The position numbers were made by a program, and so were the translations under genes. A stretch of 32,000 nt of DNA, from NCBI GenBank assembly GCA_024275415.1, contig JAJRZD010000024.1, forward strand, positions 30,001 through 62,000, written 5' to 3'. Shown in pieces: positions 5,242 to 17,309 of this stretch (the first letter of the stretch is position 1; each line of letters opens with the position of its first letter). Under the pieces are notes generated by a model, which saw nothing but the letters and a program-made list of their open reading frames with translations, made no database searches and had not been told where the DNA came from. The DNA is from an archaeon. Its GTDB lineage: Archaea; Asgardarchaeota; Thorarchaeia; Thorarchaeales; Thorarchaeaceae.

Positions 5242-5278
5242 CTCCACTCTTTACCCCTCTCGGGTTTGAAGAGCATCA
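5242..5278 (-). promoter_or_regulatory. Candidate SECIS element overlapping the selD stop codon
   Basis: Minus-strand RNA UGAU-GCUCUU-C-AAA-CCC-GAGA-GGG-GUA-AAGAGU-GGAG: UGA/GA quartet, 6-bp helix, unpaired AAA, CCC/GGG mini-stem. Folded by eye. Confidence 0.55.
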
Positions 5279-6319
5279 GGGGAACTCGGTCTCGATGAAC
5301 TGGATGCCTTCGGCGAACCTAGCGACAGGTTCGTCATCGGGCTTGGTCACATTGCCTATCTGCCAGCAGGGAAGACCTTTTTCACGCAACAGTTCAGTAA
5401 ATTGGATTACGTCAGAAGGATCAACAAACACTAGCATTCCGCCAGCTGTTTCAGCCCCATATCCTTCAGCTAGTCTATGTCCAAAGTACTGGGCAAGCTC
5501 GGGCGTTCCACGGATTACTGGAACCCGATCGATAATTATGCCAACACAGCTTAGCGCTGCCACATTGTTAGCATGTCCGAGCAGTCCAAACCCAGTTACA
5601 TCTGTCGCTGCATGAACGCCGACCTTCTGCATCGCTAAAGCCACTTCCTGGTTGCTCTGTGTCATTAGCCGGATTGCGATGTCTTGCATCCAGACTAGCT
5701 CTGGTTCGCTGAACCTCTCAAGGAGAGAATCCCGCTTTTCGTCCTGCAAGTCACGATAGGATCTCATGGCAGGCTGAATCCCTAGAGGTTTTGTCAAAAG
5801 GACAGAATCGCCAGGTTTCGCTCCAGATGAATATATCACGGAATCAGGGGTTGTGATGCCAAGTGCAATCCCGCCAAATACAGGGACAGGGTTCTTGATG
5901 GTCTGTCCGCCGGATAGTGTCCCTCCAATCTCGTCCATGAAGGCACTCATCCCCTTCAAGATACCTACGGGGATATATTCAGGGATATCCTTGGGATAAG
6001 CCAAGAATGCTTGCAGGGACACGATATCAGTAGCGCCCATGGCAAACACATCATTTGTGGCATTGCAAGCCACAATCTTGCCCTGTACGAATGGATCATC
6101 ATGGATTGGGGTGAACACATCCACATTCTCGATGATTGCAGTATGTTCGTTTACAATGCGTACAATGGCATCATCACCAATGAGGTTATTACAGCTTGCA
6201 TCAAGAGGAAGAAGGCCTGCTTGTTGAAGGAGACGTGTTAGGTCATCCTGCTTTACCTTGCAGCTTCAGCCATGAGTAGAAACCAATGCAGTAAGCCGTA
6301 CATCAGGCACTTTTTGCAT
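5276..6319 (-). CDS. selD: Selenide, water dikinase (selenophosphate synthetase), selenoprotein with Sec at codon 18 (TGA 6266-6268); 347 aa
   Basis: ATG 6319 preceded by AAGGAGGT. Translation MQKVPDVRLTALVSTHG-U-SCKVKQDDL...GDDA...NVDVFTPIHDDP joins in frame to ORF 5276..6124, which has NATNDVFAMG, LLTKPLG, TDVTGFGLLGH and ETAGGML. Confidence 0.96.
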
Positions 6320-6461: not shown

Positions 6462-7907
6462 TTGCGAGTAGAGAGAATTGCCGATCACATCTTCGAGATA
6501 CCGAAAGGAACCAAACCATGGATGAGAGTACCATCACGAATATTCGCATAGGAGATGTTGGTTGAAAAAATGCGGCAGGACAAGACATTCCTGCAATCTG
6601 TAAATACTACTGCCTTACCAGGGATATACAAGTACAGTATCGTACTTCCTGATGGACATCAAGGTTATGGCTTCCCCATAGGAGGAGTCGCTGCAGTTGA
6701 TTATGAGTCTGGAGTCATTTCACCAGGAGGAGTCGGATATGATATCAATTGTGGAGTTCGGGTTCTAAGAACAAATCTGAATATCAGCGATGTCCGCGAC
6801 AAGATCAAGGATCTTGTGAACCAGCTCTGGAATGATATCCCAACGGGGGTGGGAAAGAAAGGCGCCATTCATCTAAGCGGGAATAAGGGAGTTGATGAGG
6901 TTCTAGAGGGCGGAGCTGAATGGGCAGTCGAAAGTGGCTATGGATGGACAAAGGATCTTGACCATCAAGAAGCAAATGGCAGGATTGAGTTGGCTGATGC
7001 CAGCAAGGTTTCATCGCAGGCAAAAAAGAGAGGTTTCTCACAGATAGGAACATTGGGGTCAGGGAATCATTTCTTGGAGATCCAAGTTGTGGATCAAGTG
7101 TATAACGAAGAAGCCGCCAAGGCGATGGGAATCACAGGTGAAGGACAGATAATGGTCATGATTCACAGTGGGTCTCGTGGATTGGGACATCAGGTATGTG
7201 GGGATTACATAAAAATCATGACCGCCGCCATGCGAAAATACAACTTGGAGCTTCCGGATCGCGAGCTGTGTAGTGCACCCACCACATCCCCAGAGGGACA
7301 AGACTACCTTGGTGCTATGAGTGCAGCCGCAAATTATGCCTTTGCGAACCGTCAGTCCATGATGCATTGGGCAAGGGGATCTTTTGCAAAGGTCATGAAC
7401 TCCTCACCGGAAGACCTCGATATGGGCCTCATCTATGATGTGGCTCACAATATGGGTAAAGTGGAGGAACACGAGATTGATGGAAAGCGCCGAAAGGTAG
7501 TAGTACATCGCAAAGGTGCGACCCGCGCGTTCCCACCCAATCATCCCGAAACACCCACTGCATACAAAAATATCGGACAGCCTGTGATCATCCCGGGAAC
7601 CATGGGCACTGCGTCGTACATTCTAGTCGGTGACCAGAGAGGAATGGATTTGACTTTTGGGTCAACTGCACATGGCGCAGGGAGATTCATGAGCCGTTCA
7701 AGGGCAAAGAAGACTTACTTTGGGAAAGAAGTAAAAAGCGACCTAGCAAGTCAGGGAATCATAGTAAAGGCTACCTCTGGAATGGTCATTGCAGAAGAAG
7801 CACCTGGTGCGTACAAGGACGTAGATGAGGTCGTCAATGTGTCAGATGCGGTCGGGATCGCAACAAAGGCAATCAGACTTCGACCTCTAGGAGTCATCAA
7901 GGGATAG
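6462..7907 (+). CDS. rtcB: RtcB RNA ligase, 481 codons, interrupted by in-frame TAG at codon 30 (6549-6551)
   Basis: GGTGA SD (6451-6455), then TTG 6462: LRVERIADHIFEIPKGTKPWMRVPSRIFA*EMLVEKMRQDKT, the archaeal RtcB N-terminus. Downstream PDGHQGYGFPIGG, GYDINCGVR, GTLGSGNHFLE, HSGSRG, HRKGAT, STAHGAGR, EEAPGAYKD, ending KG*. Confidence 0.95.
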
Positions 7908-9790: not shown

Positions 9791-11455
9791 CTACTTTAAT
9801 GCATCTTCCTCTTCAGCCATCACAGCGAATAACTCATCGAGTGCATCAAGATCCTTTTCTATGTCTTCGGGTTCATCCTCGTTCAGACCGGCCATGCCCT
9901 CGTCAGGAGCGCCCAGAATAGTTTCAAGCTCTCGCAACGCCTCGTCCGCAATCTCAGAATCAGTTAGAGGTCTGTCATCCTCAGAAAGGGTTTCCTCACT
10001 TGAGAATGCCTCTAATGCATCATCTAAATCTTCCTTGGACACTCGGTCTATTTCAGCAGAAATGATATCATCTGCATCCAGTGCCTCTGAGATGATGTCT
10101 TTTGCCATCTGCGTCGATTCATCCAGACGAGAAGAGGATGGAGCTTCGTGATCCTCTGGGAGGTGGTCATCGACTACAGTAGATTGTGTGTCAGGACCGA
10201 TGGTTGGGGCGGTTTCAACGGATTCAGCCGGGGATGGTTCAAGATGGGAGGGCGTACTGGCCTCGATTGTTGTGTCCAGTCCTACCTCGTCTTTCCGGGC
10301 AAGAGCAGTATCATGGAATTCCACACGAGGAGCCGGAGTTTCTACCGAAACAACAGAAGGGCTGATGGGAGATTCATCATATTCGTCATCATCAACTTCG
10401 ATCTCTTCTATGATCTCATAATCATCGCCAAGCTCATCAGGGCTGATGATATGTCCATCTTCATCAACATAGACCTCTTCATACTATTCCTCTTCGTCTT
10501 CCTCTAAGGATCCAAGTTCGACTCTCGTTTCACGGAGTTCATGTTCGCTCATTGCTTCTGCAGCTTCATGAGTAAACTTGAGCAGTTCCGAAGCAGGAAG
10601 GTCTGGGAGTGCAACACCGACATATTGTGCCGCCGCATTCATAAGAATCCGGAGCATCTCGTCCCTTCTTGATGTGTCAATCGCCACCATCGGATATGTA
10701 GGAATGCCAAGAATCTTTTGCACCACCTCTGGGCGCATCGCATTGGGCTTGTCCTGTTTGTTTGCTAATGCAAACACGGGCACTTTCGGAGCATCACGCT
10801 TGATAAGCTTAAGGATATCCTTACTAATGATAACATTTCGGAGTGACGAGTCACATACAAGAAAAATGACATCTGCACCATGGAAATAGAATTTCCACAG
10901 GTTCCTGAATCGTTCCTGACCTGCAAAGTCCCAGAGAACCAGGGAGTAGTTCCCGAATCGGATATTCTCGACAGTTTCTAGGTTCAATGCAATTGTTGGA
11001 ACATATTGGAGTGGAGGTGTATCGCCCATCAAAAGATGTAGTGTGGTCGTCTTTCCCACACCGCCCTCTCCAACAAGCGCGATTTTCAGTCGCGTAATAA
11101 CAGAGTTCTCGATAATCTCCTCGTATTGTTCTAGTAGCGTCTGTAGCCCAGATTTCACAAGTTTGGATTTAAGTGCCTTAAGAGCTGCCTCCAAGCGTTC
11201 TCCAATAGACGATTCGTCTTCGCCCTTGTCAGTCACGAACACAAGAACCACATCAGACACAAGGTCTCTTGCGTGGAACTTGTCATCACCGATAATCAAT
11301 GGAAAGTTTGCCAGAGATGCATCTTCAGCTCGAAGATCCTCTCGGGTCTTGATGAATTCCAGCAAATCGTTTTGTTCCACTTCAACTGGCCAATATTGTG
11401 TTGATGCGAGAATCTCATTAGTCGAGATTCTTACGAGGTATGTGTTGTGAATCAC
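9791..11455 (-). CDS. Longin-like domain + Arf-like small GTPase + long acidic tail; tail joined across an in-frame TAG (10484-10486). 323 aa if terminated, 554 aa if read through
   Basis: N-terminus MIHNTYLVRISTNEILASTQYW; G1 GEGGVGKT, PTI, WDFAGQERFRNLWKFYF, NKQD. ORFs 10484..11455 and 9791..10324 share a frame with no other stop: ...LEEDEEE*YEEVYVDEDGHIISPDELGDDYEIIEEIEVDDDEYDESP...RVEFHDTAL. Confidence 0.85.
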
Positions 11456-11889: not shown

Positions 11890-13029
11890 CTACCGCGGGA
11901 AGTTATCTCGCAGGAGGCGAAGGTGCTGATGTACCATCTCCCTGAGCCGAGGGTCGTCTGGGGTCTTCTCAAGATCCTCAATCAATGTGCTGAGGAAATA
12001 CTCGGGGAAGAAGAGGCGAACCCGGATATCGTTAAGCAAGAAAAGCCATTTGTCATATTCGCCTGATGGTCCCTTTCTTCGCTTCTCAGTCACTACACGA
12101 TACTTTTTCAACATCTGAATGGCCTGCTTGAGATCCTTTGGAGGGATTCCCAAAGTGGCTTCCAGTTCGGAGATATTTGTGGGTTGTCTGCGTAGCACAG
12201 TAAGAATGTCATAAGCATCGGGGTCTGCCAATATCTGAGCCACAGCCACTGTATCCTCGGGGGTCTTTTGCCATTCGGTCAGGAATTCAAGTACCTCTGT
12301 CTTATACTCTGCTGCAAGCTCAGGATCAAGAACCGAGGTTGCAGATTCCATTGAAACCAGAGGTGGAGCTCTGAATACCTCAAGGTCTTTAATCATGAAA
12401 ACGCAACTCCGTCCAATCTCATCTACCCACTCAGTCTTGACCAGTCCAAGTTCTTCGAAGGGAGCAATGATTGAATCGATGCTTACACTCGGAAGACCTG
12501 TGACCATCTTCAACCATTCCTCAAGATCCTCTTTGGTGATACCACCCTTCCATAGTTTTGGAAACACCGCACGAGATACCTCATCAGAGAATAATCGGGC
12601 AAGACGAGACTCATCAGCCATCCCGGCTAGCCGGATAATCCTCCGGTAGGTATTGTCAAGCTCTGTTTGTAGCTCGGCATCAGTCATCGAAACGACTGCA
12701 TTTGTTATAGGAGAAACGACTGATGTAATAGCAGCCTCGTACATCTTTGCATCCTCTGAGGGGGTCAATAGCAAGGAGATACAATACTGCTCTTCTTCAC
12801 GTACGACTCCTGTATAGTAGGATGCAACGTTATACTCCTCACCCCCAATGCGGATGCTAAGCGATGCAAATCCCGCAGTCGCTTCGCCCATCGCATGGGA
12901 CGTAAAGATTCTCATAATCTCCGTATTGAGATCCTCTTGATAATAATCAGCAAAATCACTTGGCACCTTTGCTTTCAGCACAGCACCAATCTTCGAGTCC
13001 CAATCAATAAGCAACATTGCGACAGGCAT
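11890..13029 (-). CDS. Longin/uDENN-like N-terminal domain + winged-helix C-terminal region
   Basis: N-terminal LLIDWDSKIGAVLKAKVP resembles the uDENN/longin start (FD...G..l...yP), followed by VASYYTG...YCISLLL strands; C-terminal ArsR-like ILTVLRRQPTNISELEATLGIPPKDLKQAIQMLKKYRVV. Confidence 0.65.
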   Translation of the reverse strand: MPVAMLLIDWDSKIGAVLKAKVPSDFADYYQEDLNTEIMRIFTSHAMGEATAGFASLSIRIGGEEYNVASYYTGVVREEEQYCISLLLTPSEDAKMYEAAITSVVSPITNAVVSMTDAELQTELDNTYRRIIRLAGMADESRLARLFSDEVSRAVFPKLWKGGITKEDLEEWLKMVTGLPSVSIDSIIAPFEELGLVKTEWVDEIGRSCVFMIKDLEVFRAPPLVSMESATSVLDPELAAEYKTEVLEFLTEWQKTPEDTVAVAQILADPDAYDILTVLRRQPTNISELEATLGIPPKDLKQAIQMLKKYRVVTEKRRKGPSGEYDKWLFLLNDIRVRLFFPEYFLSTLIEDLEKTPDDPRLREMVHQHLRLLRDNFPR

Positions 13030-13166
13030 CTTTCCAACTTCTCCGGTCCCATCTAATTGGCTTGTGCGGAGCTATTCCTTAGTACGTTTGCTGTAGTGCT
13101 CCTAAAAAAGCTTGTCACTAATTGCTCCTCTTTTTGGTGGTCAAATATGGAAAATCTCCGCATGCT

Positions 13167-13826
13167 TCAATTCTCTTCATGTACGTTCTTAGTTAAATAT
13201 GTGCGTATGTGCTGGAATACTGTATCTACAACCTCGTCTATCGTTTTGGTGGCATCAACCACAACATAGTTGCCTGTATCATTTTGTGACATATCAAGAT
13301 AGGCATTCCTGACAAGGAGAAGTCGTTCATATTGTTCGAACTGTTCGTTCTTCTTGGCACGACTCCCTGTGACTCGTGAAAGACCTTGTTCGACTGGGAT
13401 ATCGAGGACGAAGATGATGTCAGGTTCGGGAGCTGCGATATCTTCGCGATTCTTTTGGAGTATTTGCTGCCAAGACAGTCCTGTACTCGTTGACTGGTAT
13501 GCACCTGTTGCAAAGAAATAACGATCCATTAACACAACCTTACCGGCTCGTAGAGAAGGCAGAATACGATTCTCAATATTCCATTCTCTATCCTTTATGA
13601 AAAGATCCAACTCCTCTTGAGGCGACAACTCACCTGCTGGAGACCTCTGACGTATCTCGACACCCCATCGACTTTCGCTTGTTGGTTCCCTGAGTCTAAC
13701 GACATCAAAGGACCTGGCTGTCAGCCTTGTTTCGATGATGTCACACACTGTGGTCTTTCCTGCCCCATCAATCCCCTCTAGAACAAAGAGATATCCAGGA
13801 TAGGGTCGTTGCCGTTCTGATGTCAC
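13167..13826 (-). CDS. tmk: Thymidylate kinase
   Basis: FVLEGIDGAGKTT, REP, VLMDRYFFATGAYQ, PEPDIIFVLDIP, VVDAT. Confidence 0.95.
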   Translation of the reverse strand: MTSERQRPYPGYLFVLEGIDGAGKTTVCDIIETRLTARSFDVVRLREPTSESRWGVEIRQRSPAGELSPQEELDLFIKDREWNIENRILPSLRAGKVVLMDRYFFATGAYQSTSTGLSWQQILQKNREDIAAPEPDIIFVLDIPVEQGLSRVTGSRAKKNEQFEQYERLLLVRNAYLDMSQNDTGNYVVVDATKTIDEVVDTVFQHIRTYLTKNVHEEN

Positions 13827-13913
13827 TTAGCAAAGTCTCCTCAATATCATCGGTGAGTTGCCAAAATGAGATTTGTTTTAGATGCTTCGGTGCCATATAG
13901 CAGGATTTAGGTC

Positions 13914-13926
13914 AAAAACAGGCTCT
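13914..13926 (+). repeat. 13-bp direct repeat AAAAACAGGCTCT, left copy (right copy 17005-17017)
   Basis: Exact match; left copy is immediately followed by TGT (IS481-type end). Confidence 0.75.
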
Positions 13927-14631
13927 TGTAAGGTAACAAAACATTTGAAACAAGTGGGAGTCATAGGAAACCATCACATGTAAACGTGATCAGAATGATG
14001 GATCCCGTGACTCACCGAGAACGGATTGTCAAGTAGTCCCTTAAGCGACCTGTGACTGCCACATCCATAGTGTTCGGTGTATCGAGGTATTCTAGCTACC
14101 GTTGGTGCAAGGCCTACGTTGAAGGAGGACGAAAAGGTCTACGTCCCAGATCCACGGCACCTCGTAACTCAAGGATCCTCCTGACCGACTCGCTCAGGCA
14201 GAGGATTCTCCGACACAGAGGACTGGGGTATAATCCTTTGGAGATCAAGGCCCTGTCGAGGAGGGAAGGGACAAGGATCTCGCACATGACGGTCTACCGT
14301 TTCCTGAAGGGCAGGGGTCTTGTGAGTCCCCAGAAACAGAAGAATGAGTGCCTTCCAGAGGTGGTGCATAGAAGACCGAGTACAGTACATCCTGGCCAGG
14401 AGGGATCATCCCCAGACCCTGGGAAAGGTGGAGAGGATCCACCGGACGATACAGGACGAGTGTGAGCGGATGGGAAAGGAGTTGGACAAGTACATCAAGT
14501 ATTACAACAAAGAACGTCCACATGCGTCTTGGGATATCGCACACCCTGGGAGCTGTACGACACTCCAAGGAGGTATGGAACACCATGTTAAAATGAAGGA
14601 TGTCCCAGACGTCATGTTGCCCTGTCCTACA
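13927..14631 (+). mobile_element. Degenerate IS481-family insertion sequence
   Basis: Starts TGT (13927), ends ACA (14629-14631); imperfect subterminal inverted repeats (AAGGTAACAAAACATTTGAAAC vs AGGGCAACATGACATCTGGGAC, 15/22). Confidence 0.75.
13995..14560 (+). pseudogene. IS481-family transposase pseudogene (end approximate)
   Basis: HTH part VSRYSSYRWCKAYVEGGRKGLRPRSTAP...ISHMTVYRFLKGRGL, in-frame TAG at 14034, frame switch near 14345, then HPQTLGKVERIHRTIQDEC...YYNKERPH; first DDE aspartates are missing. Confidence 0.85.
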
Positions 14632-14650
14632 TCTCCTGTGATTCCTCATC
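14581..14650 (+). repeat. 70-bp direct repeat copy 1 (IS right end plus 19 bp)
   Basis: 65/70 identical to 16934-17003; last 40 bp identical. Confidence 0.95.
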
Positions 14651-14683
14651 TGCTTTCTTGTAGCCAAAAACATTAAGCGTATT

Positions 14684-15358
14684 GTGAATCAATTAATTCG
14701 TAGAAGCATGATGACACGAAATAGAATCGTGGTTAGCATTCTTATTGTGATTATACTGGTTGCCTTTGGAGCCATAGTAGTTCTTGTCGGTAACCAGAGA
14801 AGGTCTTCGTCCAATCTCAGTTGGAATGTAGAGGTTGGGGAGAGCTTCATCTATGAGGTCGAATGTTTCTACTGGGACTCTAGCAGTAATGATTCCGTAT
14901 TTGCACAGTTGGCATTATTAAACCACACACACATTAGGATGGAAATTGTGAGCCTTCCACAAATCCCATCTGAGATTGATAGAAGTATTTTCTCAACAGA
15001 AGTTATCAATCACACAAAGGCCCACTGCTCATTTGAGAATAACAGTGAACTTCCAGTGAACTACTACGATGATATAAATCAGTTGTTGTCATCCAGTATT
15101 CTTCCAGTTGGGGACTGGTACTTGTTAGACTGGTGTTTTGCTGATGAAACTAGTGAAGCGTTCTATCCTGGAACATATATTTCAAAACTTCAAATGAACC
15201 ACTTCACGATAGGTTACGAGCTATGGGCTGGTGATGCTCTTCTTGAATGGTCAGCAAATGTCACATTGGAGGATGGAATTCCTCAAGCTGCATTCATTGA
15301 TAGAGATTTCATTTCTGTGGGACTGCATTATATTATACAACTTGTTCTGCTTTCGTAA
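14684..15358 (+). CDS. Hypothetical exported protein with N-terminal TM anchor (island cargo)
   Basis: IVVSILIVIILVAFGAIVVLVG helix, then WNVEVGESFIYEV; no catalytic motif recognised. Confidence 0.75.
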   Translation: MNQLIRRSMMTRNRIVVSILIVIILVAFGAIVVLVGNQRRSSSNLSWNVEVGESFIYEVECFYWDSSSNDSVFAQLALLNHTHIRMEIVSLPQIPSEIDRSIFSTEVINHTKAHCSFENNSELPVNYYDDINQLLSSSILPVGDWYLLDWCFADETSEAFYPGTYISKLQMNHFTIGYELWAGDALLEWSANVTLEDGIPQAAFIDRDFISVGLHYIIQLVLLS

Positions 15359-15476
15359 GATTAACTTGCTAGGAGATATTCTTTGAAGATTGAGCCTAAA
15401 AGCTCAACACAATTAGTGTCTGTTTCTCATAGACTTGTGCGGTTCACACAGAGTTCGATTGATTATCCTCCTAACG

Positions 15477-16908
15477 TCACCATCCAGGAAAGAAATTCAG
15501 GCTCCAATGATGAGCACAATACCAGGGTGCTTCATTTACGTTATACCCTGCAGCTATGTAAGCTTCGTGCATACAGCAGTAGATATTGTCACAATAGTCT
15601 TCACCGCCGCTCGGGTCGTAGTCGATGATGTTAATATGATGGCCGTATTCATGCATGCCTATAGTTCTTCTGAATGACGCTATTGTTGGTGCGCTAAACT
15701 GAGAAGCATAGTCAATCATGATTTGATCATGCATAAGAATTCCTCCAGTCTGATAGAACCCATAATGGACACCTAATACTCCCTCCCATTTCTGGCCATT
15801 TACGTAAATGTAATGCGCAAATAACATCCACTCATATTTGAGAACATCGTTCTTGTGAAAGAAATACTGTTCCGAAGATATTGCCACCCTGGAGATGAAG
15901 TACCTAATGTCATGTCCAGATTTCGGTGGTTGGTGTAGTCACTGCCTGAGATTTGGCTAGAGAGGAAGAAATCAGCTCTTTTGTAACCATGAACAATGTA
16001 ATAGCTCTCAAGATACTGCAAGTCTGATGATGAAGGAGCGTGGCCAGTGAAATAGTCAACTTCAACCCAGCCAGCTTCGTGATGAGGTTGATTCACGACA
16101 ATTCTTCGATATCCCGGGGACTCAACTGAATCGCTGTAAGTCAGTTTCAATGTATGAGTTGAGTCATATGCGTAGTCGCCTAGGTCTAGTTGATATGACC
16201 ACTCGCCATTAGGCACGAATAGCGTTTGTTTAAGTTGATCATCCAGATATACATACATTGTGAATGGAGCTCCCCAAGTACCTGGATTCGCACCGTGGCT
16301 TATAGTTAGGTCAAGCCTGTCATCTGGGCCACACCTTATCCGGTATTCAAACTCTGGAGCAGTGATATCAGCAGGAAAAGACTCACTGGTAATGTCTTGA
16401 GGTGCATCATATTCATCATAGACCCAGAAGTAGTCCATTCTCCATTGATGCTCTTGCCATCCGCACCAATTGATTTGGAGGGTTATTGTGTGAATACCAT
16501 GCCACCAGATGAAAGGAGTTGTTATGTCGCCATGAAAGCCACTTGAGCCTATAACAGCAGAATAAATCTCAGTTCCATCTAAAAAAACCTTGAAGGCCCT
16601 GCTATAAATATCAGTATCACGGGTTAGCTGTATGTGGATCTTATAATAGCCGCCAAAGAAACCAGGATGTTGAGCATCGAACTTGAAGGTCAGTTTCGAA
16701 TAACCTGTTTTAATGAACCAATGCCCATCCTTTGCAGGAGTTAGTGGGGTTGCTTCGTTGTCATAACCTTCGGGATTCGATGCAACAACTGCCATATCGG
16801 AAGAACCAGTGTTGCGTTGCTTTAGTATGATGTTTTTCCTCTGTTCTTCCTCTTTCATATTCACTTCATTGAGCACGAAGATGCTGCCATTTTCCACAGT
16901 GTAGTTCA
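15477..16908 (-). pseudogene. Extracellular-type zinc metalloprotease with beta-rich N-terminal domains; single -1 frameshift near 15870-15885, 5' end probably truncated
   Basis: ORF 15800..17005 (N-terminal ~25 aa are repeat-derived) switches to ORF 15477..15887 carrying MHEYGHH and C..IYCCM...YC; inserting one T gives ...WQYLSEQYFFHK. Confidence 0.7.
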
Positions 16909-16933
16909 TGTCTGTATTTAGGTGTCGTCGTAG

Positions 16934-17003
16934 CACCATGTTAAAAGGGAGGGGGTCCCAGATGTCATGTTGCCCTGTCCTACATCTCCTGTGATTCCTC
17001 ATC
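16934..17003 (+). repeat. 70-bp direct repeat copy 2
   Basis: 65/70 identical to 14581-14650; followed by the AAAAACAGGCTCT repeat. Confidence 0.95.
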
Positions 17004-17309
17004 AAAAAACAGGCTCTGAAAAACCTCTTATACTAATAATGTATTGATAGAAACCGTGTTTGGGGATCTTTGCATGGGATATAGCACTATCAGGTAAAGG
17101 ATCATTTCGATTCTCCGGTGGATAGCTGATGGGATACGCCCCATGTTTGAAAGACTGCGAAAGCGATATGCATGAGTTCTCAGTTATCGCATTCCGTCGA
17201 ATTTTACCCGTTATGGGTCAAAGGTCCCCTTGCAGTGTTTTCGTGTCCCGTCAGCCCACACTTTGAGCACATGATATGACGACAGTATCTTTTTATTTAA
17301 CCGGTCAAG

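Follow-up and report, generated by a model that had tools for sequence, protein, structure and literature searches.

Structure of the locus

The window, by which we mean the whole 32,000-nucleotide stretch of DNA analyzed here, carries on its minus strand an open reading frame of 323 sense codons (11455..10487) that starts with a GTG at 11455 and ends in the residues LEEDEEE. This frame is closed by a TAG at 10486..10484 and then remains open for another 230 sense codons, beginning with YEEVYVDEDGH, until it reaches a TAA at 9793..9791. With the amber codon included, the full frame comprises 554 codons (323 + 1 + 230). Re-translation thus reproduced the arrangement and coordinates described in an earlier note on this DNA, which had reported the TAG at 10484-10486 and the 230 open codons down to 9791. 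The note had also described approximately 53 uncalled codons directly past the TAG; these match the distance to the earliest in-frame ATG, GTG or TTG, a GTG at 10324 that lies 53 codons downstream. The hexamer coding score was 0.39 upstream and 0.76 downstream of the TAG, the top such pair in the window, and beyond the TAG there were no additional stops or frameshifts in the tail of the gene. The features of the locus are as follows.

11093..11455, minus strand: N-terminal longin domain, residues 1-121, from the GTG start at 11455 (AlphaFold2 model and structure matches)
10601..11092, minus strand: small GTPase domain, Arf/Rag-like, residues about 122-285 (Pfam, G motifs and structure matches)
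10487..10600, minus strand: helix and acidic run before the stop, residues 286-323, with the helix at 288-315 (translation, alignment and AlphaFold2 model)
10484..10486, minus strand: in-frame TAG, where the closest relative and two others have GAG (Glu); G>T on the coding strand
10376..10483, minus strand: tail module 1, residues 325-360 (ortholog alignments)
10151..10375, minus strand: variable, acidic, Pro/Ser/Thr-rich linker, residues 361-435, predicted to be disordered (18-33% identity to relatives; pLDDT about 30)
9794..10150, minus strand: tail module 2, helical and C-terminal, residues 436-554 (invariant residues; helices at 446-553 with pLDDT 75-81)
9791..9793, minus strand: TAA, the ancestral stop of the full-length gene (the ends of orthologs align there)

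The gene directly upstream (11890-13029, minus strand) encodes a 379-aa protein that weakly resembles a winged helix of the ArsR/HTH_20 type around residues 257-324. In three relatives it has 88-92% identity, and its synteny with the GTPase gene is kept in every case. It may encode a functional partner of the GTPase. Farther along, the region at about 13100-17300 had no synteny with the three relatives compared, and it includes what the earlier note read as an IS481-like remnant with an in-frame TAG near 14034.

A longin domain joined to an Arf-like GTPase

Pfam analysis of residues 122-253 gave Arf as the best family (E = 8.8e-22; 77.8 bits against a cut-off of 22.3), followed by Roc (3.6e-19) and Ras (1e-14). 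The G1, G3 and G4 motifs are present in the translation as GEGGVGKT, DFAGQ and NKQD. There were no matches for a longin domain in the Pfam sequence search, and the identity of this domain rests on the predicted fold. In an AlphaFold2 model of the read-through protein, made with an input alignment of 62 sequences, residues 1-121 had a pLDDT of about 90 and were arranged as beta-beta-alpha-beta-beta-beta-alpha, which is the longin topology. Comparison of these residues using VIA-align gave a Z of 14.1 to the COPI delta/zeta longin domain (5mu7_B; rmsd 2.3, 113 residues aligned). Other matches were to the longin domains of the AP-3 small subunit (9c5c_M, Z 13.8) and VAMP7 (4afi_B, Z 12.2), and to synbindin (2zmv, Z 11.8). 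A fold of the N-terminal domain from the single sequence had a pLDDT of 48 and was too poor for use, and a feature search of the ESM-Atlas with residues 1-120 gave scores that were all below threshold.

The G domain matched the structures of Arf6, Arl13B, Sar1, HodArfR1 (8oul) and LokiRagO (8yl2) with Z of about 10-12; its switch region (residues 131-178) was modeled with low confidence (pLDDT below 50). The amphipathic, often myristoylated helix that forms the N-terminus of Arf proteins is absent, and the protein begins instead with the 121-residue longin domain. The name longin-Arf-like GTPase, which had been given to the protein from its sequence, therefore holds, based on the fold matches of the AlphaFold2 longin model, the Pfam assignment to Arf and the G1, G3 and G4 motifs. 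The source names of the homologs place the gene in Candidatus Thorarchaeota.

There are two longin-GTPase paralogs elsewhere in the assembly to which the window belongs (G000). One is a 656-aa form (G000:C115:26639-27538, minus strand) with a C-terminal region that is non-acidic and unrelated to the tail described below, and the second is short, at about 310-312 aa (G000:C107:17784-18674, plus strand). Both types, long and short, recur in nearly every relative.

The tail behind the TAG is conserved

The acidic tail had no match in Pfam. Alignment of orthologs resolved it into two conserved modules separated by the variable linker. Module 1 follows directly behind the TAG and has the motif [VY]EE[VI][FY]VDE[DE]G[HR]II ... 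YE[IV][IV]EE, in which E326, G334 and Y346 are invariant in the 62 sequences. Module 2, of about 120 residues, has ten positions that are invariant in the same 62 sequences (A451, E457, L459, D462, E468, A480, A483, E488, E509 and L514). Because both modules have aligned counterparts in the tails of orthologs that lack the interruption, the open frame behind the TAG is, on the evidence of these alignments, not due to chance. The modules of the window were also as similar to those of other genera (identities of 0.48 and 0.355) as were the modules of intact relatives (0.49-0.53 and 0.345-0.365), so there is no sign of relaxed constraint behind the TAG.

The interrupted frame is one gene in relatives of the same family

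Using a six-frame search of 40 relatives, we found an ortholog in all 24 of the genomes from the same family. The open frames in these 24 genomes were 398-673 aa long and extended across the TAG site, where no stop was present; the shortest of them (L020) has masked residues. The only one with a stop anywhere was the ortholog in genome G016 (L017, contig C81), in which a TAA lies near residue 57, inside the longin domain and away from the TAG site. The 119 best database homologs were 544-675 aa long; their only 323-aa entry was the window's own protein, and we found no record of the exact 323-aa product on any other contig. None of the 24 same-family genomes and none of the 119 database homologs had a stop at the TAG column.

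Residues at this column are E, D, I or V, and the position is a non-conserved one in an acidic run. In the closest relative, which is of the same genus (L002), and in two from other genera (L007 and L003), the column is occupied by GAG followed by TAT, from which the window differs in the first base alone. By these comparisons, the amber codon splits a conserved longin-Arf-like GTPase gene of Thorarchaeota, the two pieces are one ancestral gene, and a single G>T change (GAG>TAG) that is private to the present assembly explains the stop. Two proposals of the earlier note are borne out here: that the two pieces represent one ancestral 554-aa protein, as every ortholog found is continuous across the site, and that the stop could be a recent nonsense change such as GAG>TAG, as GAG stands at the column in the closest relative and two others. 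The homolog search for the residue at codon 324, which the note had set out both as a check and as a test that could refute its idea, showed a sense codon in the relatives and a stop in none.

In-frame stops are scattered through the assembly

We surveyed the genome for stops that are flanked on either side by hexamer coding signal and lack a start close by, and removed adjacent genes that happen to be in frame. The counts for the three stop codons were roughly equal (TAG/TAA/TGA = 18/19/16 at one threshold). Four high-scoring candidates were rejected because in each case the two parts belong to distinct neighboring genes and not to a split one (L13e/HhH, AFOR/luciferase-like, HisRS/Memo and SBDS/Rrp4). 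In read-through translations, single Pfam domains spanned TAA (rpoB, TrxR, CN-hydrolase, M29, PAS kinase and SMC), TAG (KaiC) and TGA (pirin). In-frame stops of all three kinds are thus scattered through the assembly, at least eleven of them, essential genes included, and the assembly appears to carry dozens of single-base nonsense changes. These eleven genes are listed below with the stop codon and the corresponding residue and codon in orthologs.

rpoB (contig C117, locus L032; Rpb2 domain 6): TAA; invariant Ser in five uninterrupted relatives, TCA in three
TrxR, thioredoxin reductase (L039): TAA; Ser, TCN
CN-hydrolase (L036): TAA; Ser, TCA/TCT
rtcB (window 6462-7907, plus strand): TAG at 6549-6551, codon 30; invariant Ser, TCN, in five uninterrupted relatives
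M29 peptidase (L035): TAA; Glu/Asp, GAG/GAT
KaiC (L041): TAG; Asp, GAY
PfkB kinase (L033): TAG; Asp/Glu, GAC/GAA
Pirin (L046): TGA; Gly, GGA/GGT
Longin-Arf-like GTPase (window 9791-11455, minus strand): TAG; Glu, GAG
PAS kinase (L031): TAA; Pfam domain spans the stop
SMC (L045): TAA; Pfam domain spans the stop

The rpoB products of the five uninterrupted relatives are 1124-1199 aa long. RtcB is an RNA 3'-phosphate ligase that is required in tRNA splicing. The window has 28 genes that are syntenic with three relatives, among which only rtcB and the GTPase gene are split. Their two nonsense codons, both TAG and within 4 kb of one another, are more than the genome-wide density would predict. Sporadic nonsense codons are not unique to the present assembly, since in-frame stops were also seen in three relatives: the TAA in the GTPase ortholog of G016, and in-frame TGA codons in the CN-hydrolase and M29 genes of G005 and G013.

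Decoding of the amber codon

A stop codon with an intact tail behind it could be read through. The earlier note had proposed that amber readthrough yields short and long isoforms and so toggles the acidic tail, and had suggested a search for pyl genes or a tRNA with a CUA anticodon. No PylS (TIGR02367) was detected in the assembly, which is 92.9% complete, or in the 40 relatives, and a Methanosarcina control scored above the cut-off. The best match to PylB (TIGR03910) in the assembly was 30.9 bits against a cut-off of 348, and the matches were weak ones to radical-SAM proteins. Matches to RF00005 gave 31 tRNAs, which were decoded with ARAGORN and by hand; within this set, which is incomplete, there was no CUA anticodon. 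When we scanned by pattern for anticodon arms with CUA, two matches came up, neither of them tRNA-like. Many of the approximately 31 tRNA genes carry introns, some at non-canonical positions, and several intron-containing tRNAs are mislabeled by ARAGORN; for example, "Ser-CGA" calls decode by hand as Met-CAT and Leu-GAG.

The use of TAG in the rest of the genome was also informative. TAG is the terminator of 576 of the 1674 long open reading frames (34%), and therefore it has not been reassigned. Recoding specific to TAG was rejected, as both the hexamer survey and the Pfam checks showed in-frame TAA and TGA too. TAG stands for no single residue, since its counterpart in orthologs is Glu, Ser or Asp depending on the gene. 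We also considered suppression that inserts Ser. Ser is the residue replaced at four of the nine sites that were checked against orthologs, which is not significant against the 19% expected from the C>A spectrum, and the sites in GTPase, KaiC, M29, PfkB and pirin replace residues other than Ser.

Given these findings, it is very unlikely that the amber codon is subject to programmed or tolerated readthrough, by a suppressor tRNA or through a leaky context, that would give short and long isoforms with the tail toggled between them. The intact tail fits such a mechanism, as do the presence of TAG in both split genes of the window and the incompleteness of the detected tRNA set. Against it, a stop is present at the site in none of more than 140 orthologs, no single inserted residue fits the sites at which TAG interrupts genes, TAG is no more common in frame than TAA and TGA, a third of the long open reading frames end in TAG, and the detected tRNAs include no CUA anticodon. 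The isoform proposal fails for these same reasons: the relatives have no stop, neither PylS or PylB nor a CUA tRNA was found, TAG is a common terminator, and in-frame TAA and TGA likewise interrupt conserved or essential genes of this genome. Also highly improbable is a variant in which the TAG is real and partly read through, for example by a suppressor tRNA that inserts Ser or Glu and lies outside the incomplete set of detected tRNAs, so that the organism makes both a tail-less and a full-length longin-GTPase and tolerates scattered nonsense codons.

Pyrrolysine systems have been reported from some Asgard lineages, and this speaks for pyrrolysine at the TAG. We regard it as extremely unlikely that the TAG encodes pyrrolysine, given that PylS was not found in the assembly or in the 40 relatives, that PylB matches were below the cut-off, that no CUA tRNA was found and that the site, which lies in an acidic run, is not conserved and varies between Glu, Ile, Val and Asp.

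The assembly does have a tRNA-Sec (anticodon TCA; contig C69:8832-8922, minus strand), found by ARAGORN, and the window contains a selD-like gene with an in-frame TGA at about 5267-6265, as read in the earlier note. Selenocysteine decoding, unlike amber decoding, seems to be genuine in this organism.

The nonsense changes share a G:C>T:A signature

At all nine of the nonsense sites that were checked against orthologs, the stop can be reached by a single G:C>T:A transversion from a codon that specifies the residue present in orthologs. At six of the nine, the exact one-step codon is present in a relative; at the other three (KaiC, PfkB and rtcB), the one-step path has to pass through a synonymous or conservative codon (GAG or TCG) that was not observed. 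If all rates are equal, the chance that nine of nine sites would fall in the G:C>T:A class is about 1.4e-4; with the synonymous spectrum of the lineage itself it is about 1e-8. Over the nine sites, the residues replaced are of several kinds (Ser, Glu, Asp and Gly).

Oxidative damage, with formation of 8-oxoguanine, is known to cause G>T and C>A artefacts in sequencing libraries and in low-coverage metagenome-assembled genomes. Private C>A missense changes were not visibly in excess when the window was set against three relatives, G005 and G004 among them, a comparison in which divergence at approximately 5% of the conserved sites means that only a much higher error rate would be detectable. 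A mutator lineage without 8-oxoguanine repair found no support, as an OGG1-like gene is present and intact in the assembly.

What the TAG most likely is

We think it probable that the TAG reflects an error in the base or the consensus, an artefact of DNA damage, or else a change that arose very recently, without selection, in the few molecules that were sequenced, and that it is not a programmed recoding signal or isoform switch. No living population can have a fixed stop in rpoB or rtcB, and error is therefore the economical reading of the whole set, with the TAG in the GTPase gene included. The gene is the Thorarchaeota ortholog of a conserved protein of about 550-670 aa consisting of a longin domain, an Arf/Rag-like GTPase and a long acidic tail of two modules. 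One base differs in the present assembly, with TAG in place of GAG (Glu), a G:C>T:A step that fits the pattern of oxidative damage of the 8-oxoguanine type. The TAG is one of a set of scattered single-base nonsense changes, which would all stem from error, damage or a small number of unselected molecules. Most likely, the TAG is not a biological feature and the full-length protein of 554 aa is what the organism makes; as the cause of the stop, error or damage is more likely than a real allele.

The TAG could instead be a real, fixed nonsense allele. The organism would then make a tail-less longin-GTPase of 323 aa, and the 230 codons behind the stop would be a young untranslated remnant or would be weakly re-initiated at the GTG at 10324. 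Truncation at this position leaves both the longin domain and the GTPase domain intact, the same genomes have natural short paralogs of about 310 aa (such as the one on contig C107), and a single-base change suffices. We nevertheless consider a fixed allele improbable. The tail matches that of intact relatives in its conservation and carries no further lesion, so its loss would have to be extremely recent. The GTG at 10324 has no obvious ribosome-binding site, and a start there would drop tail module 1. The stops in rpoB and rtcB of the same assembly cannot be fixed, and error accounts more economically for all of them.

With an error or damage artefact as the preferred explanation, the locus is best annotated as a single gene of 554 codons in which one base is suspect. 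Scattered single-base stops of this kind split genes in automatic annotation and can pass for amber recoding, pyrrolysine use or isoform switches. Such caution matters in a lineage in which claims of this kind attract attention.

Comparison with known systems

The locus resembles genes decoded by pylTSBCD, or by classical amber suppressors of the supD type, in having an in-frame UAG within an otherwise intact gene. It differs from them in that neither PylS or PylB nor a CUA tRNA was found, the stops are not specific to TAG, and the replaced residues are heterogeneous. The resemblance to 8-oxoguanine artefacts is closer: a single G:C>T:A step separates each of the nine sites from an ortholog codon, genes were struck regardless of whether they are essential, and no loss of a repair gene was seen, the OGG1-like gene being intact. 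Such artefacts are usually found at low allele fraction, whereas the stops described here sit in the assembly consensus.

The protein can be compared with Asgard ArfR, represented by HodArfR1 (PDB 8OUL; bioRxiv 10.1101/2024.02.28.582541; PMC11914678), to which its G domain is similar (Z 10.7, 22% identity). Unlike ArfR, the present protein starts with a longin domain in place of a free N-terminal amphipathic helix, and for this reason it is unlikely that it uses the same Arf-type membrane switch.

Fusions of Rag/Arf-like GTPases to longin or roadblock domains have been described in Asgard archaea (Tran et al., PMC10933270). Like them, the present protein has a longin fold at its N-terminus and an Arf/Rag-like G domain behind it, and its ortholog group differs in adding an acidic tail of 230-350 aa with two conserved modules. 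As far as we know, this conserved two-module tail of the Thorarchaeia longin-Arf-like GTPase has not been described. Whatever the nature of the TAG, the tail may be a regulatory or partner-binding appendage, hitherto undescribed, on an Asgard longin-Arf-like GTPase, and its conservation in Thorarchaeia is a modest positive result for the study of how Asgard GTPases are regulated.
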